DNA of 33,796 nucleotides from a virus. Position 1 is the stretch's first letter; each line of letters begins with the position of its first letter. This document shows positions 627 through 28,170 of the stretch, one piece after another. The notes under the pieces were generated by a model. That model had not been told where the DNA came from, did not search any database, and saw only the letters and a list, made by a program, of their open reading frames with translations. The position numbers were made by a program, and so were the translations under genes. The stretch is from the IMG/VR virus record IMGVR_UViG_3300045988_115677. One strand, given 5' to 3'.

Positions 627-656
627 ACTATCCGCAGCACTACGTCAGGAGACGAA

Positions 657-1229
657 ATGGCAGACCAGCCCAGAAACGTCCGCGACGCCGACGAGGATGC
701 GAAGCCTCAGCCGGGCGCCACGGAGACCAGGCAGGACACCCCTGCCGCCCAGACCGAGCCGGACGCGAAGCCTCAGCCGGGCGCCGAGCCCGCGAATGAT
801 GCGCCCGCAAAGCCGGCCGCGGACACGCCCGAGTCGAAGCCGACCGAGGAGCCTGACGGGGCTGAGTCGAAGCCGACCGAGGAGCCCGGGCCCGCTCCGG
901 CTGACGAAGCGTCCGCGCCTGAGGCTCAGGCGGCCGGGGCCTCTAAGCCTGAGGATCCGCGCATCGCCGACCTGCAGGCCAAGCTTGCCGCCGCGACCGC
1001 ACAGGCCTCTGCTGTTGTTGCGCTCGCTAACGCCGGCCTGCCCGTCAGCCTCGCCGGCCTCGTCGCTGCCGGCAACCCCGACGACATCGAATCCAACGTG
1101 GAGGCGCTTGCCCAGGCCATCGATGACGCGGCCGCGCAGAAGAGTGCCCCCGCCCAGCCGTCTCTTCCGCCCGACGCGGATGAGCCCGAAGAGGACATGC
1201 GGGCGCGCGCCCGCAGGATCTTCGCCTGA
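657..1229 (+). CDS. Capsid scaffolding protein
   Basis: RBS caggag upstream. 190 aa with an acidic Pro/Glu/Ala-rich N-half and a helical Ala-rich C-half. Lies immediately upstream of the major capsid gene. Confidence 0.6.
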   Translation: MADQPRNVRDADEDAKPQPGATETRQDTPAAQTEPDAKPQPGAEPANDAPAKPAADTPESKPTEEPDGAESKPTEEPGPAPADEASAPEAQAAGASKPEDPRIADLQAKLAAATAQASAVVALANAGLPVSLAGLVAAGNPDDIESNVEALAQAIDDAAAQKSAPAQPSLPPDADEPEEDMRARARRIFA

Positions 1230-1256
1230 TCGAACAGACACTGAAGGAGAAACCAA

Positions 1257-2186
1257 ATGGCGAACTTCGCAACGACCGGCAGGAAGGTCGTCCTCTCGGA
1301 CATTGCCTCCCTCCACTACCTGTCCAGCATTGCTCTGACCGTCAACCGTGACGCCGAGGCCGGCTATGAGCGCGGCTACGGCTCGACCGTTGACGTTGCC
1401 ATGCCTGTTGAGGCCGCTTCTGGCACGCGCAGCAGCGCCCAGCGTGAAGCCCGCACCGCTATCACGTTCGGTGACCTGACTCGCAAGTACGTCCCCGTCA
1501 AGCTCGAGGATGAGCTTTACTCTGCGGTTCGCCTGCCTTCCGAGTGGCTGACCTGGACGCTCGCTGACTTTGAGCGCGAGGTAGTTAAGCCTCAGGCTGA
1601 GGCGGTCGCTTCCCTTGTCCCCGCGAAGCTCGGCGCCGTCATGGCGACCGTTCAGGCTTCGCAGGCCGCCGACCCGAACGCTGCCGGCGTCGCCTACACC
1701 GACGCGAAGGCGCTGAAGTTCGCGGCTAACGGCTCCAACCTCCTTGAGGTCGTTGCCCGTGCCAACCGGATCCTCAACAAGCAGAATGTCCCGTTCATCA
1801 ACCGGACCCTTGCTGTTGGCTCCGGCGTCGCCGAGGTGTTCCGCAAGAACAAGGACCTCCTGAACGTGTCCTTCTCCAACGACAACGGCGGCCTGCTGCG
1901 CGACGCCACCATCGCGAAGGTCGGCGGCTTCACTGTCGTTGAGGAGCCTGCGCTCCCCGAGGCATTCTCTGTGTTCTACGAGAAGAACGCTTTCGCTCTG
2001 GCCGTTCGCGCCGCCGACGTCCCGGCCGGCGCTACGTTCGGCGACAGTGCCGCGCAGGACGGTTTTGCTCTGCGTCACATCTGCGACTACGACCCGACGT
2101 ACGCTGAGGACCGCTCTGTTGTGGACGCTTACTTCGGTGCCGCCGTCCTTGATGCTCGCCGCGCTACCGCGGCCGGCCTGAGCTGA
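1257..2186 (+). CDS. Major capsid protein (HK97-fold expected)
   Basis: Strong RBS gaaggag. 309 aa. Canonical position between the scaffold and head-tail connector genes. Confidence 0.75.
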   Translation: MANFATTGRKVVLSDIASLHYLSSIALTVNRDAEAGYERGYGSTVDVAMPVEAASGTRSSAQREARTAITFGDLTRKYVPVKLEDELYSAVRLPSEWLTWTLADFEREVVKPQAEAVASLVPAKLGAVMATVQASQAADPNAAGVAYTDAKALKFAANGSNLLEVVARANRILNKQNVPFINRTLAVGSGVAEVFRKNKDLLNVSFSNDNGGLLRDATIAKVGGFTVVEEPALPEAFSVFYEKNAFALAVRAADVPAGATFGDSAAQDGFALRHICDYDPTYAEDRSVVDAYFGAAVLDARRATAAGLS

Positions 2187-2195
2187 GCGGACCGC

Positions 2196-2642
2196 ATGAT
2201 GGCTGTTGCCCCGCTCGCTTCTGTCGAGGACCTCGCCGGCTGGCTCGGCGAGCCTATAGCCGACGACGCCGACAAGAAGCGGGCGGGGTGGCTACTCCGT
2301 CGCGCCTCCTCCCTCGTGAACGAGGAGGCCGACCGTGTCCGCGACCCGTGGACTGTTGAGACTGTCCCGCCTGGCGTTCAGGAAATCGTGCTGTCGTGCG
2401 CTGCAAGGGCGTACGACAACCCTGAAGGCTGGACGGGAGAACGTCTTGATGACTGGATGGGGACCGGCAAGAAAGTTGACGAGGCGGGCTTGTTCTTGAC
2501 GGCGACGGAGCGGCGCGCCCTGCTTGCGTACGCCCCTTCAGGGCCGTCCGGGGTGGGGATCCTCCGCACCACACGGGAGGTGTGGCCTCCCGCCACGCTG
2601 AACTCTGCGCCGTATACGTTCACGGAATGGGCGCAGCCGTGA
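2196..2642 (+). CDS. Head-tail adaptor/connector protein (gp6-like)
   Basis: 148 aa, first gene after the capsid gene. N-terminal LASVEDLAGWLG... resembles phage gp6-like connector proteins. Confidence 0.55.
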   Translation: MMAVAPLASVEDLAGWLGEPIADDADKKRAGWLLRRASSLVNEEADRVRDPWTVETVPPGVQEIVLSCAARAYDNPEGWTGERLDDWMGTGKKVDEAGLFLTATERRALLAYAPSGPSGVGILRTTREVWPPATLNSAPYTFTEWAQP

Positions 2643-3007
2643 GCGCCCCCCGCACCCGCCGCCGCCGGGCCGACTGGCTCATGACCGACACTTGTGTCAT
2701 TGATCGGCCGACCGGCTCCATGAACTGGAATCCCGCCACGAAACGCGACGAGCCGACTCTTGAGCGCGTCTACGAGGGGAAGTGCCGGATGAGGCAAACC
2801 ACCATGTACGGGGCGTCGCAGACCGTGGGTGGTCACACGTACACGGTGCAGCAGACAGAGCTGCATATTCCGTACGGCTCCTATGATGCCCGGGTGGATG
2901 ACGTCGCTACGGTGACCGGCTACCGGTACGGTTTCCGTGTGCGCGGCCTAATCAACCTGACGCACGCGACCGCGCAGCGGCTCCTCGTGGACGCGGTGAC
3001 AGCATGA
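2639..3007 (+). CDS. Head closure / head-tail joining protein
   Basis: GTG 2639 overlaps the upstream stop (GTGA), which I prefer over the track start at 2582. 122 aa, in synteny with the head-tail joining module. Confidence 0.5.
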   Translation: MSAPRTRRRRADWLMTDTCVIDRPTGSMNWNPATKRDEPTLERVYEGKCRMRQTTMYGASQTVGGHTYTVQQTELHIPYGSYDARVDDVATVTGYRYGFRVRGLINLTHATAQRLLVDAVTA

Positions 3008-3390
3008 GCGGCAGCCAGGTTGACGCGTCACAGCTGACCGCACTGGCGTCCGACTTCCTGTCCGCCGGCGAGGCTACTGAAGCGGTCAAAGTGTCCGTCC
3101 GGAACGCGCTGGACAGTGCGAAGGAACGCGCCCGCAAAGACTATGCGGCGTTCCCGGACAAGGGAATCGCGAAGGTCGGCCAGGAGTTCTCCTACGACAC
3201 GAAGGGGAATGGCGCTGTAGTGGAAGCTCAGTTCGGGCCGTCGAAGCCGCGGGGCGCCCTCGCTAACATTGCGATCTGGGGGACTTCCCGTGGTGGTGGT
3301 GGTTTGCCTCATCCGGCCGAGTACATGGATGACAGCGTCGTCAACGAGATAGGGGACACCATGAACGAGATCGTAAGGAAGCTGTCATGA
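3004..3390 (+). CDS. HK97 gp10-like neck/tail component
   Basis: ATGA overlap with the upstream gene. 128 aa. Third gene of the head-tail joining block. Confidence 0.5.
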   Translation: MSGSQVDASQLTALASDFLSAGEATEAVKVSVRNALDSAKERARKDYAAFPDKGIAKVGQEFSYDTKGNGAVVEAQFGPSKPRGALANIAIWGTSRGGGGLPHPAEYMDDSVVNEIGDTMNEIVRKLS

Positions 3391-17649: not shown

Positions 17650-17817
17650 TCAGTTCACCCCCAGCCACTGCCAGAGGCCCCAGATGGTGAGGGCGGAGCC
17701 GAGGGTGGTGAGGCCGGCGGCGAGTGCGGCGATGACGTAGGCGATGCCGGCGAAGATGAGCTGGCCGGCCCGGTTGAGCTTGCGGTCGACGCTGGGGGTG
17801 GGGGCTGCGTGGCGCAT
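17650..17817 (-). CDS. Small membrane protein (55 aa), absent from the ORF track
   Basis: My translation is MRHAAPTPSVDRKLNRAGQLIFAGIAYVIAALAAGLTTLGSALTIWGLWQWLGVN. RBS gaaaggaa lies 5 nt upstream. It fills the gap between flanking genes exactly. Confidence 0.55.
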   Translation of the reverse strand: MRHAAPTPSVDRKLNRAGQLIFAGIAYVIAALAAGLTTLGSALTIWGLWQWLGVN

Positions 17818-17828
17818 CTGGTTTCCTT

Positions 17829-18053
17829 TCAGTTGGTGCGGACGATGACGATGGATCCGGCGGGGGCGGTGGCGTAGGAGCCTTTCTGGGCGCCTGCGCG
17901 GCCGCCTCGGAGGGTGAGGGTCCGGTAGGCGGGCCGGCCGGGGGTTGGGGTGTTGGACTCGACCCGCCAGGTGGCGCCTTCGCGGATGATGAGACTTCCG
18001 GCGGAGACGTCCTCTATGGGGGACGGCCGTGTTGGCTGGTGGGGGTGCATCAT
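17829..18053 (-). CDS. Hypothetical protein (74 aa)
   Basis: RBS gaaaggaa upstream. Tightly packed in the leftward operon. Confidence 0.5.
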   Translation of the reverse strand: MMHPHQPTRPSPIEDVSAGSLIIREGATWRVESNTPTPGRPAYRTLTLRGGRAGAQKGSYATAPAGSIVIVRTN

Positions 18054-18094
18054 TTGGTGTTCCTTTCCGAGGTTGTGGGAGGCCTTCTGGCGGC

Positions 18095-18316
18095 CTATCG
18101 CCGGGCCGCCTGGGTGGCTGCCTGGGCTGCGCTCTTGAGGGCGCTGTAGAGGCTCTCAGGGGTACTTTCGGGCCCGTAGGGGACGCGGGTCGGCCGGCCG
18201 CCTCGGGGGTGGATGGTGACCCATCCGTCCTCGACGGTGACCTTGGTGCCGGCGGCCAGTTTTTGGTCGGCGATGACGTTCCAGGCGGCGATGCGGGCGA
18301 TGGTTGCGGCGTTCAT
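18095..18316 (-). CDS. Hypothetical protein (73 aa)
   Basis: RBS gaaaggag upstream. In the leftward operon. Confidence 0.5.
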   Translation of the reverse strand: MNAATIARIAAWNVIADQKLAAGTKVTVEDGWVTIHPRGGRPTRVPYGPESTPESLYSALKSAAQAATQAARR

Positions 18317-18331
18317 GGGGGCTCCTTTCGG

Positions 18332-18359
18332 GGCCCCCGGGGCGTCTACCCCGGGGGCC
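18332..18359 (-). other. Perfect 11-bp GC hairpin between two small genes
   Basis: ggcccccgggg cgtcta ccccgggggcc. On the - strand it lies between the stop at 18369 and the RBS of the gene starting at 18316. No U tract. Confidence 0.6.
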
Positions 18360-18368
18360 TCTGGGTGG

Positions 18369-18611
18369 TCAGAGGGCGTTGAGGGCGTCTGCGTCGAGGC
18401 GGCCCATGGTGGTCAGCCAGTCGCAAAGGTCGCTGTGCAGGCCTCCGTTGGGAGAGCCGTCGTAGGGGAGGCCCCACTGGTCGACGTCCTGGAAGGCCTC
18501 TTGGTCGCCGATGGTGAGGGTCCAGCGGGTGAGGTTGTTGTTGGCCGCGTCGGTGCGGGGGGCGGCGTCCAGCCGGGCGGCCTGCAGGGGGGAGGTGGTG
18601 TTGGCGGTCAT
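18369..18611 (-). CDS. Hypothetical protein (80 aa)
   Basis: ATG 18611 with RBS gaaaggaaa is preferred over the track start at 18635. First gene after the internal terminator. Confidence 0.5.
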   Translation of the reverse strand: MTANTTSPLQAARLDAAPRTDAANNNLTRWTLTIGDQEAFQDVDQWGLPYDGSPNGGLHSDLCDWLTTMGRLDADALNAL

Positions 18612-18735
18612 GTCCGTTTCCTTTCTGTCAGTCAACTGATCGGACGTAGGTGATGCTTCCTGCTGCGGGGGTGGGCGTCAACCTCGCGCGCCCGTGAGTT
18701 CGGTCACGCGAGTGTTTGGGGGGCGGGATTGTGCG

Positions 18736-18781
18736 AAAAACTCGGCTCCCTCGGACGGTGGAGATAGCGGAGGGAGTCGAG
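18736..18781 (-). terminator. Intrinsic terminator inside the leftward arm
   Basis: On the - strand: CTCGACTCCCTC, a 17-nt loop, GAGGGAGCCGAG (11 of 12 bp), immediately followed by TTTTT. It lies 80 nt after the metallophosphoesterase stop in a roughly 250-nt non-coding gap. Confidence 0.6.
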
Positions 18782-18859
18782 CTGTGAGACGCCGCGGGCC
18801 CGCACTCTAAGACCGCGTCGGCCTGTCGGGCGATTAACGACACGCGGCCGTGGCGGAAG

Positions 18860-20011
18860 TCAGGACCACAGCCGCCACTCGGACGAGGTCCCCGCCCCCA
18901 GCTCAAACGTTAGAAGGGCCGGGGCGGACGACTCCCCGCTGGCGTTCTGAAACCAAGAGCTGCCAGGGTCGACAGTTGGGGCGCAGATGATCTGCCGGCT
19001 GTCCCCGACCGTCTGCACGGAGAAGGAGTGCCAATGGCCGTGCAGGAGCACGCGGGCGTCTTGCATGCCTGCCACGCAGCCGAACGCCTGCCCGCGGAAC
19101 CAGTCGGCGACGCGGTTCTTACTGCCGGCCGCGTGCCCGTGAGTGACCCCCATGACCGTGCCGTCCTGGGCGTGCACTGTCAGGGACTCCAGGCGGGGGG
19201 ACGGGGCCAGGAAGCTGACGCCCTCGTATCCGGGCCGGCCTTCTAGGGCCATCTGAATGTTCGATTGGATCAGGAGTCCGTAGTCGTCCGCAGCGATGTT
19301 CGCCCGGTTGGACCGGCCGATCCCCGTGCGGACCTGGCAATGGTTGGACGGCACCGCCACGTAGGTGACTGACGGGCAGGCCATGGCAAGCTGCCGGACA
19401 CAGTCCGCGAGGACTGCCTGGGCGGTGCGGATCTGTTCAACGAGGCCCATGTCGCATGTCTGCGCCTGGCTGACCGTGTTCGTGAAATTCTCTGTGCTGT
19501 CGCCGCAGTCCACCATGATGACCTCGTCGTAGTTGGCGGCATCGAGGGCGATCCGGGCGATCGCGGAGCGGACCGCTTTGACGGTCTCCTTGGTTCCTCC
19601 GCGGGCATCCGTCTTGCCGATTTGCATGTCAGAGATGACGACCACGTACGTGCCCTTCCGGGGGCGGTCCACGGCCGGCGTCGCCTCGTTAGCGAACAGG
19701 GGGGCGATGTCGTCGTAGGCCAGGCGCTTCACCTCTGCTCGTTCTGCTGCGCCGGGCGCCCAAGTGATCTTCTCGTAGGAGCCGTCCGCCAGCCGGACGG
19801 TCTTACCGCGGGCGGTGATCGCTTCGGTGGGGATTCCGAAGTATGCGTCGGTGCCCTGCTGGCGTTGCTCGGAACGGCGCTTCAGGGCCTTCCTGTGGCG
19901 GCGGACGGCAGCCTCGCTGGTGCCGTACTCGTCGGCAATAGATTGGTTGGTGCGCCGCTGATGCTGGGGGAGTGAGTCGTTCGCGATGATGGCTTCGTCG
20001 AGGGGGGACAT
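18860..20011 (-). CDS. Calcineurin-like metallophosphoesterase (Mre11/SbcD-type nuclease-like) with N-terminal HTH-like segment
   Basis: ATG 20011 with RBS gggggag. Phosphoesterase motif series VVISDMQIG, VDCGDSTEN, VPSNHC, GVTHGHA, LLHGHWH. Confidence 0.65.
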   Translation of the reverse strand: MSPLDEAIIANDSLPQHQRRTNQSIADEYGTSEAAVRRHRKALKRRSEQRQQGTDAYFGIPTEAITARGKTVRLADGSYEKITWAPGAAERAEVKRLAYDDIAPLFANEATPAVDRPRKGTYVVVISDMQIGKTDARGGTKETVKAVRSAIARIALDAANYDEVIMVDCGDSTENFTNTVSQAQTCDMGLVEQIRTAQAVLADCVRQLAMACPSVTYVAVPSNHCQVRTGIGRSNRANIAADDYGLLIQSNIQMALEGRPGYEGVSFLAPSPRLESLTVHAQDGTVMGVTHGHAAGSKNRVADWFRGQAFGCVAGMQDARVLLHGHWHSFSVQTVGDSRQIICAPTVDPGSSWFQNASGESSAPALLTFELGAGTSSEWRLWS

Positions 20012-20013
20012 GT

Positions 20014-20286
20014 TCACTCCCCCGCCTTGTAGTTGTTGACCCACTGGCGGAGATGGAACATGTTGAACCCTGCCCACGAGTCGTAGACGCGGCCGGTGTT
20101 CCTGTCGGCGACGTAGCAGACGGGGGCGGCGGCGTAGCCGTGCTCGTTGGCGAGTTCCTGCGCGGTCTTGTCGTCCTTGAATCGTGTTTCCATGTAGGGC
20201 GTGCCGTTCTTAGTGAGGTACCGCTTGGAGGAGCGGCACTGCTGGCAGCCAGGCAGGCTGGCAATGTAGATCTCATATGAGGCCAT
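20014..20286 (-). CDS. nrdH: NrdH-like glutaredoxin
   Basis: 90 aa. CQQC redox motif near the N-terminus. WAGFN resembles the NrdH WSGFR motif. RBS aaggag. Confidence 0.6.
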   Translation of the reverse strand: MASYEIYIASLPGCQQCRSSKRYLTKNGTPYMETRFKDDKTAQELANEHGYAAAPVCYVADRNTGRVYDSWAGFNMFHLRQWVNNYKAGE

Positions 20287-20324
20287 TGCTTGTTTCTCCT
20301 TGCTTATGGGGTGTGGGGTTGAGT

Positions 20325-20355
20325 GGCGGGGGCCGACAGTCGGCCGGCCCCCGCC
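20325..20355 (-). terminator. GC hairpin downstream of ssb (possible terminator or RNA stabiliser)
   Basis: 10-bp perfect stem ggcgggggcc / ggcccccgcc with an 11-nt loop, 10 nt after the SSB stop on the - strand. No U tract. Confidence 0.35.
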
Positions 20356-20365
20356 GTCGGATGCG

Positions 20366-20803
20366 TCAGAAGGGGCAGTCGCCGAAGTTGGACTGTCCGG
20401 CTAGCGGGTTCGCTGCGGCCTGGCCGAGCTGGCCGGGCTGGTGCTGGCTCCGAGCGTCTCCGTCCCGGTCGGCCTTGCGGATGTACCCGCAGAGGCGACA
20501 GTTACGCAGGTCATGGTCGATGCCTGCCCTCTCTCCGGTGTGCCACTCCCGGAGGGTCATCGTGCCGGTGACGGTGACCCGGTCGCCTTTCTTAAGGGTG
20601 TCTGCGATGTAGGTGTTCTCCTCACCGAACAGGGCGGCAGACACGTACAGCGGGGCGCCGTCGTCGTCCCACCTGCCGGTGGACTTGTCCTTCGCTCTGC
20701 GTGTAGCGCCGATGCGAAGGGAGATGATGGGGGTGCCGGACTGTGCGTAGTGGACCTCGGGGTCCTTGACGAGGGTGCCTGTGGTGGTGGTTTCAACAGC
20801 CAT
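20366..20803 (-). CDS. ssb: Single-stranded DNA-binding protein
   Basis: 145 aa. N-terminal OB-fold-like sequence (GTLVKDPEVHY...GDRVTVTGTM), a Gly/Gln-rich linker and a C-terminal tip FGDCPF resembling the SSB acidic D-x-P-F tail. Confidence 0.8.
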   Translation of the reverse strand: MAVETTTTGTLVKDPEVHYAQSGTPIISLRIGATRRAKDKSTGRWDDDGAPLYVSAALFGEENTYIADTLKKGDRVTVTGTMTLREWHTGERAGIDHDLRNCRLCGYIRKADRDGDARSQHQPGQLGQAAANPLAGQSNFGDCPF

Positions 20804-20817
20804 GGTGGGGTTCCTGT

Positions 20818-21048
20818 TCAGTTGATGAGGGCGGCTTTTATCTGGGCGTCCTGGAGTCGCGCGTAGTCGTACGCCTGGAAGTCCTCTACGGAGCCTGCGG
20901 GGACAACGGAGATGACCGCAGGCTGGCCGACCGACTCGACCGCGTTGTGGTCTGCGCGGTCGATGACGACGGGGATGTCTCCGTGCTTCTTGATGATGTC
21001 GGTGAGGTAGCCGATGAGCTCTTCGGCGGTGATTACCTGGGCGGTCAT
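20818..21048 (-). CDS. Hypothetical protein (76 aa), member of a recurrent domain family in this genome
   Basis: ATG 21048 overlaps the upstream stop (ATGA), with RBS gaaagga. Its N-terminal helix TAEELIGYLTDIIKKHGDIPV matches three other segments (see findings). Confidence 0.55.
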   Translation of the reverse strand: MTAQVITAEELIGYLTDIIKKHGDIPVVIDRADHNAVESVGQPAVISVVPAGSVEDFQAYDYARLQDAQIKAALIN

Positions 21049-21422
21049 TCTGCGGGGTCCTTTCTGTTGGCGTGGTTCAGGATGGTGACGAGGTCTGTGA
21101 CTGTCATGGTCACCCATTGGTCTCCGGCTTTGGCGTTGCCGTGGCGTTTGTGGATGACGATGCCGGTCAGGCCTCCGATGTTCGACGCTTCAGTATGCGC
21201 CTCTCGCATCCATTGAGGCAAGCCCATCTTAGTCACATTCTTGCATTCGACGGCGATCTGTCTGCCGCGGCAGGCGACCCCGTACAGGTCGCCCGAGTCG
21301 GCGGCGCCGGTCTTGACCTGCCGGTCGACATGACAGCCTTCGAGGCGGTCGTCGAGATGGTCGGCGATGAGCCGTTCGAATCTTGACCCTGCGGCTTTAG
21401 CGGATCTCAGGTTGCGTCCCAT
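21045..21422 (-). CDS. PD-(D/E)xK nuclease, Holliday-junction-resolvase-like (Hjc-type)
   Basis: 125 aa. Motifs GSRFERL, DSGDLYGV and IAVECKN in the order expected for Hjc-like resolvases. Confidence 0.6.
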   Translation of the reverse strand: MGRNLRSAKAAGSRFERLIADHLDDRLEGCHVDRQVKTGAADSGDLYGVACRGRQIAVECKNVTKMGLPQWMREAHTEASNIGGLTGIVIHKRHGNAKAGDQWVTMTVTDLVTILNHANRKDPAE

Positions 21423-21784
21423 GCTTCACGCGGCTCCTTCTTGACTTGGTCATGGATGGTGGCCAGCTGGTCCTGCAGGTATTCACGCATCTCGGTGGTG
21501 TCTTCCTGGCGGGAGGTCAGGTAGGCGGCGGCGGCTGCGAAGCGTGCCCGCAGGGAGTCGAGGCCGGCCTGCCAGGAGTCGCGGGCGGCGATGTTGCCGA
21601 CGTGTCTGCGCGCGTACCAGCAGGCCTTCGCCATATCTTCTCCGTACGTGGCCCCGTCCTTGATGCCGGCGCGGAGCGCGTACTTCAAGACGTTGCCGAT
21701 CAGGAATGTTTCCCGCTCGGTCAGGTTGATGACCTCGACAGGCCACTGCGTGTAGTGGGCGGGGTGACGCACGCTGTCGTTCAT
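21407..21784 (-). CDS. DUF3310-like protein
   Basis: 125 aa. N-terminal HPAHYTQWPVEVINL...GNVLKYALRAG matches the DUF3310 signature as I remember it. Confidence 0.55.
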   Translation of the reverse strand: MNDSVRHPAHYTQWPVEVINLTERETFLIGNVLKYALRAGIKDGATYGEDMAKACWYARRHVGNIAARDSWQAGLDSLRARFAAAAAYLTSRQEDTTEMREYLQDQLATIHDQVKKEPREAWDAT

Positions 21785-22455
21785 GAGATCACCGCCATGG
21801 GGGTGCCGTCAGTGTCGGCGCGGTACTGGTCCCACCCGCCGGCGTGGCCAGTCTTGACCGTGTTGAGTACGAGCAGGCCGTCCGCCTGTTCGAAGCCGAT
21901 GCCGCCGCCGGCGACCACGGCGACAGGGGTGTCGTTGCCGTACCGGAAAGCGGCGTCCTGCAACTGGCCCATGAGGCGGCCGATGGTGAGGGTGCCGGCT
22001 TCCTGGGTGGCGTAGTCGCGGACTGTGGCTCCGGTGCCGGTGGATCCGAAGCCTCCCTGGCCGCGGGGCGTGTCGTCTTCTACGGCGCCGACCTCCATGT
22101 GGACGGGCGGCTGGGGAAGGATGATCAGCTGGCAGATCCGCTCTCCGGCAGCGATGAGGGCCGGTTCGGCGAGTGCGGTGACAAGGAGCTTGATGTTGCC
22201 TCGATACCCGGAGTCGATGATTCCAACGCCGTTAGGGATGGTGAGTCCTTTCTTGCCGGCAGAGGAACGGAGCGTCAGCTGCCCGTAGTAGCCGTCGGGG
22301 ATGGCGACCCGGATGCCCAGGTCGATCGTGTACATGGCGCCTGAGCGGACCAGGCAGCCCTGCCCTTCGGGGACGTGCAGGTCAAGGCCGGCGTCCGTGT
22401 CGTGGGCCCGCGCGGGGTCCTGCACGTTCATTGTCTTCTGGACGGTGACTTTCAT
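21781..22455 (-). CDS. dut: dUTPase fused to an ~80-aa C-terminal extra domain
   Basis: dUTPase motifs AGLDL, RSS, GIIDSGYRG and RGQGGFGSTG lie within aa 1-140. Residues about 145-224 have no dUTPase counterpart. Confidence 0.8.
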   Translation of the reverse strand: MKVTVQKTMNVQDPARAHDTDAGLDLHVPEGQGCLVRSGAMYTIDLGIRVAIPDGYYGQLTLRSSAGKKGLTIPNGVGIIDSGYRGNIKLLVTALAEPALIAAGERICQLIILPQPPVHMEVGAVEDDTPRGQGGFGSTGTGATVRDYATQEAGTLTIGRLMGQLQDAAFRYGNDTPVAVVAGGGIGFEQADGLLVLNTVKTGHAGGWDQYRADTDGTPMAVIS

Positions 22456-22469
22456 GTTGGTGGTTCCTT

Positions 22470-22838
22470 TCAGTGCTTAGCCCATGGGGAGCGGTCTCGG
22501 CCTCTCGTGAGGTCGTGTGGCTCGGAGTGGTAGGAGTCGATTTCGTTTTCCTCCCAGGCGAGAGGCGAGTGGCCGCCTGCGATGACGGCGGTTCTGTGTG
22601 CGGCTGTAGAGTTTTTGTTTGGGCTGATCGGCTGGCATTGGAGCCGCTGCCACGCGCAGGCCATGCGGAGTCTGGCCTCGGGGTTGACGTACTCGCCTGC
22701 GCGGCCTTTGGTGACCATGCGGGGAGGGACGCCTGCCGCTCGGGCGATGCGGTGTTCGTCGTAGCCGATCCACATGAGCGACAGGATCCGCCGCTGCAGC
22801 CCGATCGGGGTGACGAGGGTGACGGGCACTGCTGTCAT
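22470..22838 (-). CDS. Helix-turn-helix DNA-binding protein
   Basis: 122 aa. LQRRILSLMWIGYDEHRIARAAGV looks like an HTH. ATGA overlap with the recT stop. Confidence 0.5.
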   Translation of the reverse strand: MTAVPVTLVTPIGLQRRILSLMWIGYDEHRIARAAGVPPRMVTKGRAGEYVNPEARLRMACAWQRLQCQPISPNKNSTAAHRTAVIAGGHSPLAWEENEIDSYHSEPHDLTRGRDRSPWAKH

Positions 22839-23680
22839 CGGTTGGTCTCCGGGTTCCTGCCGGCCTGCCAGGTCGAGAGCACAGCCTCCAGGGAGTCGGG
22901 GTCATCCATGCTGGCGCCTCCTTCTTGGGCTCGTTTCCACACGTCGCCCGGGCTGCCGCCGGTTTCCTTGCAGTAGTCCATGAGCATGGTGCGGGTCATG
23001 TTGCGGCGAGCTTCCTGCTCGGAGCCGGGCTCCGGGTTCGGTGCGGGGACCGTGGTGGGGCTGTCGGGGATGATCCCCGTTTCGTGCTTCCGTTCGGTGG
23101 GGGGCGGCACGTCCTTGGGGCCGGGGGCGCTCTCGGCGATTCTGCGGGCTTTTTCTTGGGCGTCTCCTCGTTCGGTTGGGGTGGTTTCCTCGGTGTGTCC
23201 ACGCAGGTTCTGAGGTTCGCTCGTGAGCTCTTCTGCGGTGTACACGTTCCCGGCGAGGGCGTCCGATGCGCCCTGACGGCACACCTCGGTGATGGCGCGG
23301 GCTCGGAGCATCTGTCGGGGGTACTGCGTCCACGGGCCGCGGTTGCCCCACAGCCCTGCCTCGCGGGCCTTCTTTTCGTCCCAGGTGACGGTGAACTTGT
23401 AGTCGGGGTCGTCGGCGCGGATGATGCTAGCGGTGACACTGTTGCCGTCTTCGTGGATGCGGAGCTTGTGGCCGGCCCGGCGGACGATCGCCCCCATAAG
23501 GTCTGCGGACATGGTCATCTTGCCGCGGGCTACGACCATGGATTGCATGACCTGGGTGTAGGGGACGCCGAGGGCGTCGCCGATGTCCATCGCCCAGATA
23601 ATGTCGGCCGGCTTGCCTCGGTACTCGGCGGGGATGAGGGATGACTGGGAGACGATCTTCGCGTGTTCGATGCGGTCCAT
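22835..23680 (-). CDS. recT: RecT-family single-strand annealing recombinase
   Basis: Start ATG 23680 (MDRIEHAK...) with RBS gaaaggaa. RecT-like core ...GPWTQYPRQMLRARAITEVCRQ.... The longer track ORF (to 24097) overlaps two better genes. Confidence 0.7.
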   Translation of the reverse strand: MDRIEHAKIVSQSSLIPAEYRGKPADIIWAMDIGDALGVPYTQVMQSMVVARGKMTMSADLMGAIVRRAGHKLRIHEDGNSVTASIIRADDPDYKFTVTWDEKKAREAGLWGNRGPWTQYPRQMLRARAITEVCRQGASDALAGNVYTAEELTSEPQNLRGHTEETTPTERGDAQEKARRIAESAPGPKDVPPPTERKHETGIIPDSPTTVPAPNPEPGSEQEARRNMTRTMLMDYCKETGGSPGDVWKRAQEGGASMDDPDSLEAVLSTWQAGRNPETNR

Positions 23681-23985
23681 TAGAGGGTTCCTTTCATGAC
23701 TGTTCCGAGGAGGGCGGCGGCTACGTCGGCGGGGTGTGAGTCGCACTGGTAGGGGACGTCGGCGCGGGAGCGTCCCGCTTGGATGGTGACCCCGGCTTCG
23801 CCGACGCGGGCGGAGAGCAGGTCTTGCTGGTCGGTGAAGATGAATAGGCGGGCCGGGTCTGCGTCTACGAGCGGTTCGTCGACGATGAACTGCGGCCCGG
23901 GGTGGTGGCGGAGGCAGCATTCGGCGATGAGCCTGGCCATGGGGGCTCTGTCTTGTCTGGGGGCGAATCGGCCGATCATGACCAT
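23680..23985 (-). CDS. Hypothetical protein (99-101 aa)
   Basis: Packed in the operon. The alternative ATG 23979 gives an ATGA overlap with the upstream stop. Confidence 0.45.
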   Translation of the reverse strand: MVMIGRFAPRQDRAPMARLIAECCLRHHPGPQFIVDEPLVDADPARLFIFTDQQDLLSARVGEAGVTIQAGRSRADVPYQCDSHPADVAAALLGTVMKGTL

Positions 23986-24260
23986 GCCTCGCGCGCGTCG
24001 TTAAGGGCCCGGCGGATGGCGTTGTTGATGGCGTCCCGGGCGCCGTCCGGGTCGCAGGCGTAGCGGCTGCCGCCGGCGTCGAGGGCGTACAGCCCATCGT
24101 CGGTGACTGACGCGATCACGCTATCCCTCTCGGTGTGGGCTTCGATGTAGGGAGAGCCGTGGGTGGTGCGGTGGAGCGCGGCGTATTCCGAGACGGCGAG
24201 GTGGTCGCGGATGGCGGCCAGGAGAGGAAGGAGGAGGCGGGACTGCATGAGCGGCGACAT
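23976..24260 (-). CDS. Hypothetical protein (94 aa)
   Basis: RBS gaaaggga upstream. In the operon. Confidence 0.45.
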   Translation of the reverse strand: MSPLMQSRLLLPLLAAIRDHLAVSEYAALHRTTHGSPYIEAHTERDSVIASVTDDGLYALDAGGSRYACDPDGARDAINNAIRRALNDAREAWS

Positions 24261-24272
24261 GGGTGGTCCCTT

Positions 24273-24827
24273 TCAGTTGGTGGGCTTGATGGCGGTGAGG
24301 ATGTCGGCGATGGCTTCGCGGGCCTGGGATAGGTTGCGCTTAGAGGCCGGCCAGCGATGACTGTGGGTGATCGCCCAGGCGGAGAAGTCCGAGTTCCGGC
24401 CTTTCTCGATGTGGATGGCACCGGGGCCGTAGCCGACCTCTGCGACTTCGGTGCCGTCCGGGAGCGCCCCGGTGATGGCGGGGTCGCCGCCGGCGAGGAG
24501 GTCGGAGAGCTGCTCGAGCAGGTCGGCTGGGGTCATCTCTCGCGCCTCTCGTTCGCGGAGATCCCCTGACAGTGGCGACGTGTGGGCGTAGTCCAGCATG
24601 GTGGCTAGCTGCTCGCGCATGGCGTTTGTGTCGTCGGCCGCCCAGGCGCCACCGCCCGGCTGCGAGTACCAGACGTACATGCCGTCATAGTCGTAGACGT
24701 TGGTCTTCCTGGCGGTGCCCTCGACGGCGATCATTCGGTCGCCGAAGTCGTCGGACTTGGCGATGGTCGCGGACTCGCCTTCGCGGAGGAGCGGCTGAAG
24801 GGCGGTGAGGATGTCTTCGAGTGTCAT
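24273..24827 (-). CDS. Hypothetical protein (184 aa) with internal tandem duplication of a ~90-aa module
   Basis: ATG 24827 (MTLEDILTALQPLL...) is preferred over the track start at 24917. The second half restarts with MTPADLLEQLSDLL.... Confidence 0.5.
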   Translation of the reverse strand: MTLEDILTALQPLLREGESATIAKSDDFGDRMIAVEGTARKTNVYDYDGMYVWYSQPGGGAWAADDTNAMREQLATMLDYAHTSPLSGDLREREAREMTPADLLEQLSDLLAGGDPAITGALPDGTEVAEVGYGPGAIHIEKGRNSDFSAWAITHSHRWPASKRNLSQAREAIADILTAIKPTN

Positions 24828-24837
24828 GTCGGGGCTT

Positions 24838-25008
24838 TCAGCTGTGGCGGACGTTGACTGTCCGGGTCTTCCCGGTGGAGGGGTCTGTGTAGTGGGCGCG
24901 TCTCCAGTCGGCGGCATCGATTCGCGCGACCCTGCGCCGGTAGGACGCCGCGTACTTTTTGGCTGACCGTGCTCGTTTGGAGGGGGTGGTGTTCTCGGGG
25001 ATGTTCAT
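24838..25008 (-). CDS. Small basic protein (56 aa), absent from the ORF track
   Basis: My translation is MNIPENTTPSKRARSAKKYAASYRRRVARIDAADWRRAHYTDPSTGKTRTVNVRHS. ATGA overlap with the stop of gene 25005..25298. It fills an otherwise empty 170-nt gap. Confidence 0.45.
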   Translation of the reverse strand: MNIPENTTPSKRARSAKKYAASYRRRVARIDAADWRRAHYTDPSTGKTRTVNVRHS

Positions 25009-25298
25009 GGCAGTGGGAGGTTTCTGAGGGTCTGTTCGGCGTCGGCTTCCGTGGTGGCGTGATCGAACGAGGGGGCCTGGGGTGCGGGGCGGTTCGAGGA
25101 TGCGACCACGACGTGGAGGCTGTCATCGATGACTGCGACCCCGCGGCTCGGGATGATCACTGACCATCGGATGGTGTCTCCGAAGGGGGAGCGGACGGTT
25201 ACTGCTTTGGCTTCGGCTGCCCAGCCTCGCCGGCCGATGTCGCGGGCGATGTTGTTGGCGAGTTCCTGCGCGGTGGGCAGCTTCTTCCGGCGGAACAT
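25005..25298 (-). CDS. Hypothetical protein (97 aa)
   Basis: The start shares one nucleotide with the upstream stop (TAATG). In the operon. Confidence 0.45.
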   Translation of the reverse strand: MFRRKKLPTAQELANNIARDIGRRGWAAEAKAVTVRSPFGDTIRWSVIIPSRGVAVIDDSLHVVVASSNRPAPQAPSFDHATTEADAEQTLRNLPLP

Positions 25299-25591
25299 TA
25301 GTCGTTCTCCAGGCAGAGGAGTGTGCAGACGATACGGCCGGCGTCTTCTGGGCGGGTGGGGTATGTGACGTGCGTGCCGGTGGCTGACGTGTAGGCGATC
25401 CTGTCTTGGTAGACGGCGACTTTGGCTGTGCAGTCCGTCTGGCCGGTTTCGGCGATGGCTACGACTGCGGCTTCCGGGTGGCCGGCGGCGCCGACGTGGG
25501 TGGCTACTGCCCCGTAGCCGATGGTGGTGAGGCGGATGTAGTTGGCGATCTGGGTGGCGACGCGGTTCTGGGTGGGGGGTGACAGGCGCAT
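25298..25591 (-). CDS. Hypothetical protein (97 aa)
   Basis: RBS gaaagga upstream. In the operon. Confidence 0.45.
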   Translation of the reverse strand: MRLSPPTQNRVATQIANYIRLTTIGYGAVATHVGAAGHPEAAVVAIAETGQTDCTAKVAVYQDRIAYTSATGTHVTYPTRPEDAGRIVCTLLCLEND

Positions 25592-25626
25592 GTTGTGTCC
25601 TTTCTGTGGGGTCTTCTGGGGGGCTG

Positions 25627-25887
25627 TCAGGCGCCGGCCCGGCTCTGGTACTGGGGGTGGGGCGCGAGGGCGTCAGCGTGGCGGAGGATGGCCTTCCTGC
25701 GGTTGCTGGACCGGGTCGCTTTGATGGCGACCGGCAGGCCGATGACCAGCGCCGGGATGGTGGCCGGCCCGACCCCGCCGGCGAGGAGGCCGGCGACCGC
25801 GCCGAGGACGGCGACGATTGAGAGGGTCGCGATCCAGGCGATCAGGGTGGTGGCTGCGCGGCTGGGGAGCTGGGCGGTGGTGTTCAT
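25627..25887 (-). CDS. Membrane protein (86 aa, two TM segments), first gene of the leftward arm
   Basis: Strong RBS aaggagg. Hydrophobic segments TLIAWIATLSIVAVLGAVAGLLAG and IPALVIGLPVAI. Confidence 0.55.
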   Translation of the reverse strand: MNTTAQLPSRAATTLIAWIATLSIVAVLGAVAGLLAGGVGPATIPALVIGLPVAIKATRSSNRRKAILRHADALAPHPQYQSRAGA

Positions 25888-25933
25888 TTGGGTCCTCCTT
25901 GGTGGGGTTGGTTTCTATCGAGTTGTTGGTCTT

Positions 25934-25962
25934 AGTCTCCTGTGTTTCGGGCGGGAAGTCAA
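25934..25962 (-). promoter_or_regulatory. Candidate leftward promoter
   Basis: On the - strand: TTGACT (25962-25957), 17 nt, GAGACT (25939-25934), about 45 nt upstream of ATG 25887. The -10 is weak. Confidence 0.25.
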
Positions 25963-26120
25963 GGCACGGCAGGGTGACGTCCGACACGGCCGTGGGTGGG
26001 GGTGCCGCCGTCCCTTCGTTCTCCTTGCTTTTCTCTCACCGAAGCGCAAGGGGGACCGTGGTCCTAGGCCGGTCCCGCGCCCGCGCGCGCCCGCGCCCCC
26101 GTACGGGGCTATGACACCAA

Positions 26121-26170
26121 GGGAGAGATATCTAGGTAGTAGATAGTAGATACCTGTGGATATGTGGATA
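26121..26170. promoter_or_regulatory. AT-rich element with AGTAGAT tandem repeat (candidate DNA unwinding element)
   Basis: About 40 percent GC by hand count, against roughly two-thirds for the genome. Contains the palindrome agatatct and then ggtAGTAGATAGTAGATAcc, abutting two DnaA-box-like sites. Confidence 0.4.
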
Positions 26171-26400
26171 ACCCCATCTTTCGTTGCTATGGTGCGGCAG
26201 CCCTGTCCACAGGGGGTTGTGGGTAAAGTTGTATGCACATGTGAATTGCTTGTATGCACAAGTACTTTTCCACAGGTTATCCACAACCAATCCACAGGGT
26301 TGTCCACACGGTTATCCACAGGGGTGACGAGGATGGCCTGGGACCGAAGTCCCCGCACTGGGAGGAGTTATCCACAGGGTGTGAGCTAACCTGTGGACAC
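26155..26400. promoter_or_regulatory. Cluster of ~10 DnaA-box-like 9-mers (candidate origin of replication or DnaA-binding array)
   Basis: Minus orientation: 26155-63 ATATCCACA, 26163-71 TTATCCACA, 26392-400 GTGTCCACA. Plus orientation: 26203-11 CTGTCCACA, 26266-74 TTTTCCACA, 26277-85 TTATCCACA, 26288-96 CAATCCACA, 26300-08 TTGTCCACA, 26312-20 TTATCCACA, 26368-76 TTATCCACA. Confidence 0.6.
26229..26260 (+). repeat. Direct repeat TTGTATGCACA x2 at 21-bp spacing in AT-rich DNA
   Basis: Copies at 26229-26239 and 26250-26260 are identical. The palindrome cacatgtg lies between them. About 38 percent GC locally. Confidence 0.8.
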
Positions 26401-26427
26401 CAACCACCACCACCGTCGGAGGACCAC

Positions 26428-26640
26428 ATGACTCGCACCCTTTCGTTCCTCGTTGGCATCTCTGCCGCCCTTGCCACCCTCTGGTCTCTGGCTCAGCTGT
26501 GGATCGCTCTCACTGTCGGAGAAGCGAACGTGATCTCTCTGGTCGGCTGGGGGTTGGCCTCAGCGATCCTGTGGGCCCTTCTGCGGCCTATCAGGTGGGC
26601 CAGAGCCCACGGCCTGCACCCTGGGTTCCATCGCCGCTGA
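26428..26640 (+). CDS. Small membrane protein (70 aa, two TM segments), first rightward gene
   Basis: ATG 26428 with RBS ggagga, in frame with track ORF 26254..26640 (whose 5' part lies over the DnaA-box array). A strong terminator follows. Confidence 0.55.
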   Translation: MTRTLSFLVGISAALATLWSLAQLWIALTVGEANVISLVGWGLASAILWALLRPIRWARAHGLHPGFHRR

Positions 26641-26663
26641 GGAGCTCTGAGCGCCTCTCGGGC

Positions 26664-26703
26664 GGGGGTCTCGACACGCCGGTGTCGGGGCCCCCTTCTT
26701 TGT
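26664..26703 (+). terminator. Intrinsic terminator
   Basis: 14-bp stem gggggtctcgacac / gtgtcggggccccc (two G-U pairs), loop gccg, followed by ttctttgt. Starts 24 nt after the stop at 26640. Confidence 0.75.
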
Positions 26704-26874
26704 GCCCTCTAACCGGAACGTTTCCGTCCTGTTCTGTTCCTCTTCGCTCGAGGGGGTGCCCCGCGATGCGGGAGGGGGAGTGGTGTTAGGGCCTAGTTGC
26801 AGGGGGGCGACTTCGTACCCAGCCGTTCTTTGTTCTGTCAAACCATGCGGTACAACCGGAACGCATGTGTCCCA

Positions 26875-26903
26875 CTTACACTAGAACGTCAGTCGGTTAA
26901 CGT
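26875..26903 (+). promoter_or_regulatory. Candidate rightward promoter upstream of the T-depleted region
   Basis: CTTACA (26875-80), 17 nt, TAACGT (26898-903), matching TAnnnT. Lies in locally AT-rich DNA with the tandem TTAACGT-T-TTAACGT. Weak match only. Confidence 0.2.
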
Positions 26904-27423
26904 TTTAACGTGTGAGTTCCCCCACCGAATTCGGGGGCCTAGGAGCCGCCACCGTGTACAGTGGGGGGGAAAGGGGGGGCGGCGAAGAGCCCGACCGTCC
27001 AGGTCGGCCCGCCCAACGGGAACGACACAGCCAGCAACAGAACAACCCCCCGACAGAGACACAACCCACGGAGCCCGCCACCACGGAACAGCCCAACAAA
27101 CACGCAGCCGAACCTGAACAGCCAACAGGGAACAGCAACCCGCCCCCCAGGTTAAGAACAACCCGACCAGGACACAGCCAGCAAGACAAGCCACCCACAA
27201 GACCAGCCCACCCCCTCAGAAAAGAACTGCAACCCACAGGACAGCCACCAACAAACAGTAACCACCACCCAACAGAGGGACGGCCCGAACCAGGAACCGC
27301 AGCACACCAAGCGGGTGGGGCGGGAGTTAAGGAGGGGTCTAAGGGGAGCAGGCCCCCACACGCCACAGCCCCCACCACCCCGGAACCGGGACCCACCAAC
27401 CAAACACCGCCACCCACCAGACA

Positions 27424-27446
27424 CCCCAACCCCAAACCCCAACCCC
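27424..27446 (-). repeat. G-quadruplex motif GGGGTTGGGGTTTGGGGTTGGGG (C4A2-type repeats on the + strand)
   Basis: Four C4 tracts on the + strand at 27424-27, 27430-33, 27437-40 and 27443-46, separated by AA, AAA and AA. Confidence 0.8.
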
Positions 27447-27530
27447 AACCAGAAACCAAACACCAAAGCCAGGACCCCCACCACCCTCCAGCCGCCTCAC
27501 CACCCACACCCCACCAGGTACCCTGCACAC

Positions 27531-27986
27531 ATGCCATGGGCCACATCCAACCGACGTCAACGCTTGCCAACAAACTGGAACAAACTCAGGAAGCAAGTCC
27601 TCGCAAAAGCAAACTACAAATGCGCAGGCCTCGACCCAGCCACCACCCCACCACCCACCAGTGGAGAGGCACAAGGGAGGGCACACCGGTGGCACCACCC
27701 GGCATGCACCATGCGCGCAACCGACGTCGACCACATCATCGCCGGCGACAACCACGAACTAAGTAATCTCCAAGCCCTGTCGCACGCCTGCCACACAGCC
27801 AAGACCACACAAGAGAACGCCGCAGCCAAGGCGCGCATACGCGCCACAGCCACACGCGAACAGCCGCCACACCCAAGCGCGCGCGCAACACAAACAAACA
27901 AAAAAGAAAAACAAAACAAAACAAAAGCAAAAGCAAGCAAAAGCAAAACCCAAGCCGAAACGACGCGACGCGAAACTTGGAACTGA
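27531..27986 (+). CDS. HNH endonuclease (packaging-associated type) with Lys-rich C-terminal tail
   Basis: HNH core DVDHIIAGDNHELSNLQALSHACHTAKT. N-terminal RRQRLPTNWNKLRKQVLAKANYKC is typical of phage HNH proteins. The start is uncertain, because the frame is open back to GTG 27315. Confidence 0.65.
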   Translation: MPWATSNRRQRLPTNWNKLRKQVLAKANYKCAGLDPATTPPPTSGEAQGRAHRWHHPACTMRATDVDHIIAGDNHELSNLQALSHACHTAKTTQENAAAKARIRATATREQPPHPSARATQTNKKEKQNKTKAKASKSKTQAETTRRETWN

Positions 27987-28170
27987 AAAAAAACCGCGCC
28001 GAAAAAAACGAAGCCACCCCCTGGCACCGACTCCCCTCCCCCCACACACGAAAGACCGGGGGAGATAGCAATCACGGAGTGGGATGCCCGGAACGACAGC
28101 GTTTGGGGTGACGGCGGCCACTGTGGGCGCGTGCGTGGCGGAACTCGGACGGCCCCGTAACCTTGTTGTA

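Follow-up and report, generated by a model that had tools for sequence, protein, structure and literature searches.

A conserved array of DnaA-type boxes with trio-like repeats in a circular phage genome: a candidate replication origin for host DnaA

The DNA considered here is the whole 33,796-nucleotide stretch of the IMG/VR virus record IMGVR_UViG_3300045988_115677 (the window). Its first and last 55 bases are identical and the phage genome is circular with 33,741 bp and an overall GC content of about 65%. The subject of this report is a non-coding element at 26097-26400, in which 11 sites of the DnaA-box type lie beside a short AT-rich stretch with repeats that resemble the DnaA-trios of bacterial chromosomal origins. 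The sequence grammar of this element, its identity to modules at bacterial dnaA-dnaN loci, its conservation and the absence of detectable phage initiation genes point to an oriC-type replication origin that would use the DnaA protein of the host, a reading to which we assign a probability of roughly 55%.

Results

DnaA-type boxes between the divergent gene blocks

The array occupies the sole intergenic region between a leftward gene block (17650-25887) and the rightward genes that run from 26428 onward. It had first been noticed in an annotation made by a model from the letters and open reading frames only (the sequence-only reading), which correctly placed it between the two divergent arms. 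The following sites and repeats were found:

26155..26171, minus strand: tandem DnaA-type boxes, a proximal ATATCCACA (26155-63) and a distal, perfect TTATCCACA (26163-71)
26203..26226, both strands: two boxes facing each other, CTGTCCACA at 26203-11 (plus) and TTACCCACA at 26218-26 (minus)
26229..26263, plus strand: direct repeat TTGTATGCACA(T/A)GT, two copies 21 bp apart (repeat search)
26266..26320, plus strand: five head-to-tail boxes in helical phase, TTTTCCACA, TTATCCACA, CAATCCACA, TTGTCCACA and TTATCCACA
26340..26353, plus strand: short stem-loop GGGAC-CGAA-GTCCC (repeat search), with similar GGGAC...GTCCC elements in relatives
26368..26400, both strands: right-hand facing pair, TTATCCACA at 26368-76 (plus) and GTGTCCACA at 26392-26400 (minus)

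The boxes of the tandem pair overlap by one base and are set 8 bp apart. The head-to-tail boxes start at 26266, 26277, 26288, 26300 and 26312, as had been described before, i.e. with a spacing of 11/11/12/12 bp and gaps of 2-3 bp. The four perfect copies of TTATCCACA (26163-71 on the minus strand; 26277-85, 26312-20 and 26368-76 on the plus strand) and the perfect TTGTCCACA at 26300-08 were likewise recovered. The sequence-only reading had counted ten boxes; all its coordinates were right but the count was too low, because 11 CCACA-core sites exist, among them those at 26155 (minus), 26203 (plus), 26218 (minus) and 26392 (minus).

These 11 CCACA/TGTGG cores, all in 26153-26400 and counted over 251 bp, compare to 0.72 expected. 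Matches to TTATCCACA with at most one mismatch number ten in the window, eight of them in the array region, against 1.8 +/- 1.2 in shuffled sequences. The TTWTNCACA scan against shuffles proposed with the sequence-only reading gave 6 matches, 5 of which fall in the array region within 214 bp, against 0.32 +/- 0.51 for the whole window in shuffles. Hence, 9-mers of the TTATCCACA or TT(A/T)TNCACA type are clustered beyond chance. The site consensus reads GGTTATCCACAGG, and the longer core TCCACAGG, which had been noted for seven sites, occurs in seven copies in the window, all within 26153-26397. The direct repeat TTGTATGCACA may represent two weak boxes or an element of a promoter. The region had also been described as flanked by the most AT-rich DNA of the genome, which holds at a scale of 200 bp (the minimum, GC 0.47, lies at 26116-26315) but not at 60-100 bp, where the array region ranks second behind an A-run near 27890.

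A putative unwinding module next to the tandem boxes

To the left of the tandem boxes, the following features were distinguished:

26097..26108, no strand assigned: GC-rich perfect palindrome CCCCGTACGGGG, at the end of a long GC-rich run (26066-26109) and on the left border of the AT-rich stretch
26110..26152, plus strand: AT-rich stretch, GC 37% compared with about 65% for the genome, a candidate duplex-unwinding region
26133..26149, plus strand: DnaA-trio-like repeats TAG G TAG TAG A TAG TAG, five TAG in 17 nt, grouped as 1+2+2 by single-base slips
26150..26154, plus strand: 5-bp spacer ATACC, which separates the proximal box from the trios

The phage module thus reads GAGATATC-TAG-G-TAG-TAG-A-TAG-TAG-ATACC-TGTGGATA-TGTGGATAA-CCCC. 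Two of the three plus-strand copies of TAGTAG in the genome fall in 26133..26149, and no other 18-nt stretch of the window contains five TAG. A similar arrangement is known as the basal unwinding system (BUS), which has been described for Bacillus subtilis and predicted in 85% of bacterial origins (PMC8287927). It comprises tandem boxes, of which the distal one is closer to the consensus, at least three NAN trios, with 3'-GAT-5' as the commonest, and then AT-rich DNA; the distance from box to trios peaks at 10-13 bp (PMC8287927). In the phage 13 bp separate the end of the last TAG (26149) from the start of the distal box (26163), which is within the limit of 16 bp and in the typical range of 10-13 bp. 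The trio-distal box is a perfect TTATCCACA and the proximal ATATCCACA is weaker. AT-rich DNA follows beyond the trios, the stretch being short in comparison to the bacterial loci. BUS elements are further characterized by a chromosomal site beside dnaA or dnaN; here the window is a phage genome with packaging, head and tail genes, and both dnaA and dnaN are absent according to the gene annotation of its open reading frames.

The palindrome CCCCGTACGGGG belongs to a longer GC-rich run of palindromes at 26051-26109 (GGACCGTGGTCC, CGCGCCCGCGCGCG..., CCCCGTACGGGG) between the AT-rich stretch and the first early gene, which might hinder unwinding or serve as a structured 5' leader. A scan of 25500-27100 gave no sigma-70 promoters, and a manual search for actinobacterial TANNNT -10 elements yielded TACTAT (minus strand, 26148-26143) as the single candidate, which is not conserved in relatives. 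Known RNA genes in the region were ruled out, since the Rfam (gathering thresholds) and tRNA scans of the region remained empty.

Correspondence with bacterial dnaA-dnaN origins

The 22-mer CCTGTGGATATGTGGATAACCC (26153-26174), which covers the tandem boxes with their flanks, occurs exactly in 28 species-representative bacterial genomes, where about 0.02 would be expected. These genomes span many phyla, including the Bacillus cereus group, Rubrobacter, Chloroflexi, Clostridia, Gracilibacteria and the actinobacterium Herbiconiux. In all five loci examined for flanking open reading frames the 22-mer lies between dnaA and dnaN, and in most of the 28 bacterial loci it is preceded by DnaA-trios on the same strand. 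For example, the Bacillus locus reads TAGTAGTAATAGTAATAG-GGCC-TGTGGATATGTGGATAA, the Chloroflexi loci read TAGTAATCGTAGTAG-AGCC-... and Rubrobacter (TAA)n-GGCC-..., and the TAG repeats of the phage share strand and orientation with the TAG/TAA trios of the Bacillus, Chloroflexi, Clostridia, Rubrobacter and Gracilibacteria loci. Some bacterial 22-mer loci possess only TAG TAG before a non-A triplet, yet in register. The order of AT-rich DNA, TAG (3'-GAT-5') repeats, short spacer, weaker proximal box and consensus distal box, as well as its polarity, is common to the phage and the BUS at B. subtilis incC boxes 6 and 7 (PMC8287927, PMC6669920, PMC10721633). The earlier proposal of host-type DnaA boxes in an oriC-style arrangement appears strengthened by the match of 22 out of 22 bases to dnaA-dnaN loci and by TAG repeats at the right strand and distance.

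The E. coli oriC has the same polarity, i.e. unwinding element, GCCC and TGTGGATAA at R1 (5425 of 5426 genomes), and its R1 box, TTATCCACAGGG, resembles the phage consensus. Both arrays consist of head-to-tail 9-mers about 11 bp apart with a mix of consensus and weak sites and with outer boxes that face inward. In E. coli oriC, R1 stands on one side, while R4, C1, I3, C2 and C3 with 2-bp gaps stand on the other. In contrast to E. coli oriC, GATC clusters and IHF or Fis sites were not identified in the phage array, and the origin architecture of the presumed actinobacterial host differs from that of E. coli.

Conservation in related phages

A terminase search retrieved 50 related viral contigs, and 16 distinct sequences were aligned. 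The array is present in every related contig that reaches far enough upstream, in the group with 95% identity as well as in the one with 66-69%, together about 20 uncultivated phages; conservation in relatives had been suggested as a check, and it is clearly seen. The block of trios, spacer and boxes represents the most conserved non-coding DNA among the 16 distinct relatives, the terminases of which are only 66-69% identical. The tandem boxes 26155..26171 are invariant in nearly all relatives, and the spacer always measures 5 bp and is mostly GC-rich (GTGCC, GCACC, GCCCC, GGGCC). The slip pattern TAGGTAGTAGRTAGTAG is kept as well, and an in-register run of at least three trios exists in none of them. 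The AT-rich blocks CTATGACACC and AGATATCTAGGTAGTAG are nearly invariant, and the palindrome is kept as CCCCGTACGGGG or CCCCGTTGGGG in the 16 distinct relatives.

The head-to-tail run aligns gap-free in the 16 relatives with near-invariant CCACA cores and an essentially fixed 11/11/12/12 spacing. At the first four positions of the boxes only TTAT, TTGT, TTAC, TTTT, TTTC and ATAT occur, which is within the degeneracy of DnaA boxes, and in 15 of the 16 relatives the third box of the run is weak (CAAT, CGAT, TGAT or CAAA). E. coli oriC mixes high- and low-affinity DnaA sites, the weak, phased ones serving the oligomerization of ATP-DnaA, and judged by the alignment the conserved weak sites of the phages in helical phase would resemble those regions. 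The inverted box at 26218-26 (TGTGGATAA/TGTGGGYAA) is well conserved, the box at 26203-11 keeps its CCAC core, and the box at 26368-76 is conserved in the group with 95% identity. Only the second copy of the direct repeat TTGTATGCACA (CTTGTATGCACAA) is conserved in both sub-clades; the first is not conserved in the 66-69% sub-clade.

In the contigs L044 and L215 (IMGVR_UViG_3300019854_000001) the whole early block is inverted, and the module still stands at its 5' end. An apparent loss of the array in L044 and L045 was rejected for the same reason: the early block is inverted and the array is located at the other end of the contig. In the sub-lineage of L044 (1-9400) and L215 the inverted block extends from RecT to the exonuclease, all genes run in one direction, the HNH gene follows directly after the early genes, and dUTPase and DUF3310 are fused into one open reading frame.

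Similar arrays and modules in other viruses

A sensitive BLAST of the region matched non-coding box arrays in unrelated phages. The Arthrobacter phage Seahorse (L001, 49-95) carries four boxes with an 11-bp period within 100 bp of its right end, the T7-like E. coli phage P483 (L002, 1420-1560) about ten boxes in its terminal region, and the Microvirus mar31 (L003, 2935-3057) eleven tandem GGTTTTCCACA units. All three arrays are head-to-tail with an 11-bp period, non-coding and near genome ends, and obvious trios were seen in none of them. The tandem boxes of the F plasmid were also matched by the phage query.

A 17-mer of the tandem boxes was found in more than 120 IMG/VR contigs, with neither dnaA nor dnaN in the flanks fetched for any of them. 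A stricter search that required TAGTAG, 4-5 bp and tandem boxes in this order selected 35 viral contigs, about 22 of this clade and a dozen or so unrelated; the fetched flanks of the 17 that were checked contained neither dnaA nor dnaN. Several unrelated contigs have canonical in-register trios, e.g. (TAG)5-TACC- in L158 and (TAG)5-GGCC- in L224. Eight IMG/VR contigs outside this clade, of 12 to 275 kb and 31-69% GC (L158, L224, L219, L201, L228, L229, L227, L234), combine in-register TAG trios with a 4-5-bp spacer and TGTGGATATGTGGA, and their fetched flanks are likewise free of dnaA and dnaN. Generic NAN runs are only weakly enriched, with at least three in-register trios in 18% of 101 viral contexts of the tandem-box 17-mer compared with 14% at random positions; what stands out is the specific coupling of TAGTAG to the boxes.

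Among named viruses, the Gokushovirus WZ-2015a (L203, KT264804, 4.8-kb ssDNA, 370-520) contains a canonical module of the origin type in non-coding DNA, in which an AT-rich run is followed by TAGTAGTAGTAG-GGTGC-TGTGGAAATGTGGATAA and by five or more additional boxes. A second group of boxes is located about 250 bp away in the same genome (660-740). The record 'Bacteriophage sp.' MT836067.1 (L204, unverified, 322-3021) was rejected as a phage example, because dnaA and dnaN flank its module, which indicates bacterial chromosomal DNA; its DnaA is 50% identical to the DnaA query.

Gene content, composition and presumed host

The genes next to the element are:

17650-25887, minus strand: leftward early block with RecT, exonuclease, SSB, RusA-like resolvase, dUTPase, DUF3310, a glutaredoxin-like protein and several small uncharacterized proteins
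25627..25887, minus strand: first leftward early gene, an 86-aa predicted membrane protein
26428..26640, plus strand: first rightward gene, a 70-aa hydrophobic protein with a GGAGGA ribosome-binding site

The gene 26428..26640 is missing from L011, L014 and the 66-69% group, where a T-poor region adjoins the array directly; it is dispensable and probably lies outside the element. From 28202 across the junction up to 17526 the genes are rightward and comprise those for both terminase subunits (small and large), the portal, protease, capsid and tail proteins and a product in which an endolysin-like domain was recognized. The probable genome end lies near 28085, after an HNH endonuclease gene (27531-27986), and many related contigs begin there, about 2460 bp upstream of the terminase gene. 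Searches with Pfam, PHROGs and NCBIfam, which covered the early and the main unannotated late open reading frames, detected no initiator, helicase, loader, primase or polymerase, and no integrase was detected in the window with the same collections.

The two largest early proteins without an assigned function are confined to this phage clade. The 122-aa protein (22470-22838) has a confident five-helix AlphaFold model (pLDDT 85), and none of its fold matches to XRE-type regulators in the PDB is significant (best E 0.6). For the 184-aa protein (24273-24827) the model is a tandem alpha/beta repeat without significant PDB fold match. A hidden initiator among these two was rejected, as the confident models show nothing resembling replication proteins. 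The small early proteins 24273-24827, 23976-24260, 25005-25298 and 18095-18316 (minus strand) look like variants of one alpha-beta-alpha unit, of which the 184-aa protein is a tandem repeat; all four are clade-restricted and without detectable relatives. The 420-aa open reading frame 22835-24097 (minus) is probably over-extended, since its RecT homology begins at residue 139 at the earliest (MDRIEH...) and its N-terminal part, rich in Arg and Pro, overlaps 23976-24260, a gene of its own.

In the early genes the coding strand is rich in A+C, giving plus-strand GC skews of up to +0.3 and AT skews down to -0.48, and the structural genes (28202-17526, plus) are nearly without skew. The same A+C coding bias is found in L044, where the early genes sit on the opposite strand. 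GC skew was therefore rejected as an origin signal, because in the window and in L044 it tracks the coding strand of the early genes and not the direction of replication. The plus strand is also nearly T-free over about 1.1 kb (26980-28060; 2-7% T, A+C 72-78%), a stretch that covers the whole HNH gene and a proline-rich open reading frame upstream of it, and whose minus strand bears a telomere-like G-quadruplex motif, GGGGTTGGGGTTTGGGGTTGGGG, at 27424-27446. Such a T-poor region also follows the array in the relatives L011, L014, L022 and others.

For the terminase the closest matches, at 40-45% identity, belong to phages of Bifidobacterium, Microbacterium and Mycobacterium. The phage has no close relative in culture, and a megablast of the region against isolated phages gave no match. 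The exact capsid protein was found in run ERR589404. The 22-mer scan of the genome collection returned origins of many phyla and neither a prophage nor an obvious host. The host is presumably a high-GC actinobacterium.

Discussion

An origin for host DnaA as favored interpretation

We favor an oriC-type origin at 26097-26400 since this reading alone explains at once why trios, a fixed spacer, an AT-rich stretch and phased strong and weak boxes occur together and why a phage initiator is absent. According to this model, which is built from the sequence, the 33.7-kb genome would circularize after injection and host DnaA would fill the consensus boxes 26163, 26277, 26312 and 26368, followed by ATP-DnaA at the weaker boxes that are either helically spaced (26266-26320) or inward-facing (26203, 26218, 26392). 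A DnaA filament would then grow from the tandem boxes 26155-26171 across the 5-bp spacer onto the TAG repeats of the plus strand. The 37%-GC stretch 26110-26152 would open, and the GC-rich palindrome 26097-26108 might limit the bubble. Host helicase, primase and Pol III would copy the phage DNA, and the phage RecT, exonuclease, SSB and RusA-like resolvase could convert the resulting DNA into concatemers fit for packaging. As the element occupies the divergent promoter region, DnaA probably affects early and late transcription as well.

Several points weigh against an origin. The longest in-register NAN run is two, compared with the published minimum of three for the BUS, and the spacer of 5 bp exceeds the usual 4 bp of chromosomal examples. 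The AT-rich stretch has only 43 bp, is capped by a GC palindrome and lies away from dnaA/dnaN in a region that would also have to hold the divergent promoters, a position that a purely regulatory role would fit equally. Phage P483 has its own replication system yet about ten boxes, i.e. box arrays alone are not origins. The composition skews follow the coding strand and provide no independent origin signal, and a phage with RecT, exonuclease and SSB could rely largely on recombination-dependent replication. Finally, the injection-stop region of T5-like phages contains a conserved non-coding multi-box array that was called reminiscent of oriC, and a role of these boxes in replication was argued to be unlikely, with T5 origins mapping near the genome centre (10.1101/866236).

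Alternative interpretations

The element might instead be a DnaA-controlled switch of divergent promoters, by which DnaA represses or activates the leftward early and the rightward operons, the latter comprising HNH and, after circularization, the structural genes, so that expression would be tied to the DnaA-ATP level or growth state of the host. DnaA is known to autoregulate the dnaA promoter and to stimulate lambda pR. The array fills the only intergenic region between the divergent blocks, it keeps its place at the 5' end of the early block even in the inverted arrangement of L044/L215, and box-only arrays exist in phages with their own replication machinery such as P483. However, such a switch does not explain why TAG repeats, an AT-rich stretch and a spacer fixed at 5 bp are present or why the match to the bacterial unwinding module is exact, the only -10-like element is not conserved and no sigma-70-type promoter was detected in the scan, and 11 helically phased sites exceed the number in known DnaA-regulated promoters. 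As the sole role of the element we regard it as unlikely but conceivable.

It is less probable still that the array is a sink of the datA type, at which the boxes titrate or inactivate host DnaA, stop chromosomal initiation and free replisome and nucleotides for the phage. The cluster of consensus and near-consensus sites is dense and would amount to hundreds of boxes at high phage copy number, and datA and DARS are precedents for box clusters that act on DnaA without being origins. Like the phage array, they lie outside oriC; they have fewer boxes, depend on IHF or Fis and are not known to contain an unwinding module. A sink needs neither trios nor an AT-rich stretch nor a strict spacing or orientation, yet all of these are conserved, and it leaves the replication start of an initiator-less phage unexplained. 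It would be compatible with an origin as a side effect.

An anchor for DNA entry as proposed for T5, where boxes would bind membrane-associated DnaA during injection, seems very improbable. The array does lie about 1.7-1.9 kb from the right genome end (near 28085), and those of Seahorse, P483 and T5 (in its first-step-transfer DNA) are near genome ends, too; however, the T5 model itself is only a proposal, the array of L044/L215 moved with the early block away from the HNH/end region, and trios and AT-rich stretch are left unexplained. The T5 array comprises eight boxes, which are paired at a distance of 3 bp within large inverted repeats whose spacer measures 52 bp (10.1101/866236). In the phage, the pair overlaps by 1 nt, the gaps in the run are 2-3 bp and a repeat search found no large inverted repeats. 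T5 encodes its own replication proteins, and trios have not been reported for it.

A phage-encoded binder such as the 122-aa protein, for which the sites would be iterons or operators with a coincidental likeness to DnaA boxes, was the caveat of the sequence-only reading, and despite the longer core TCCACAGG at seven sites and the five-helix model with XRE-type helix-turn-helix proteins as best, non-significant matches, we consider it very improbable, because the motif, its GG flank and the 11-bp-phased arrays also occur in E. coli and Arthrobacter phages, in microviruses and at bacterial origins, the protein diverges by 35-40% between sub-clades but the boxes remain unchanged, and no Rep-like protein or second conserved repeat family was found. 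A repressor/operator system would show a lineage-specific motif that co-varies with its binder, which is not the case here. Moreover, a binder common to all organisms with the 22-mer can only be DnaA, which argues against a phage-encoded one. XRE-type proteins normally bind palindromes as dimers and not head-to-tail 9-mers.

Relation to known replicons

With F ori2, P1 oriR, pSC101 and RK2 oriV the phage element shares tandem DnaA boxes that adjoin an AT-rich region and are carried by a mobile replicon. These, however, need an encoded Rep protein and iterons, whereas the phage has no detected Rep gene or conserved iteron family; the only repeat other than the DnaA boxes was the two-copy TTGTATGCACA. 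The predicted mode would correspond to that of oriC minichromosomes, in which the replicon gives only cis-acting DNA and the host all proteins; minichromosomes are laboratory constructs. In the literature searched we found no description of a natural virus with this strategy, nor of DnaA-trios or an unwinding module in a virus. DnaA boxes as such were already known in P1, F and T5, and Ori-Finder lists some in phage papers. What is new is an oriC-type module on a phage without detected initiator.

Implications

Taken further, the whole clade might represent natural 'viral minichromosomes', which lack an initiator, carry a working mimic of the bacterial origin module and have their replication started by and tuned to the DnaA-ATP cycle of the host, a strategy that, in view of the canonical modules in a dozen or so unrelated viral contigs and in the Gokushovirus, perhaps arose repeatedly. 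We advance this wider proposal tentatively and hold it at slightly less than an even chance. For human-associated actinobacteria of high GC, which are poorly tractable, the 300-bp element is a candidate minimal replicon, and the grammar of TAGTAG, 4-5 bp and tandem boxes offers a simple search key for viromes. Moreover, the slipped trios and the 5-bp spacer kept over about 20 genomes represent a natural experiment on how strictly the DnaA filament depends on the single-strand register, which is an open question in the unwinding-system model.

The phage origins known so far depend on an initiator or an RNA polymerase of the phage, on protein priming or on recombination, and a start by host DnaA only would, if true, add a new entry to these types. 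Phage replication would then be tied to a host cell-cycle regulator, with consequences for infections of slow-growing or stationary cells, and the host range may be limited by the DnaA-box and trio preferences of the host. If the strategy did arise repeatedly, origin mimicry would be an overlooked and widespread way in which viruses take over host replication.

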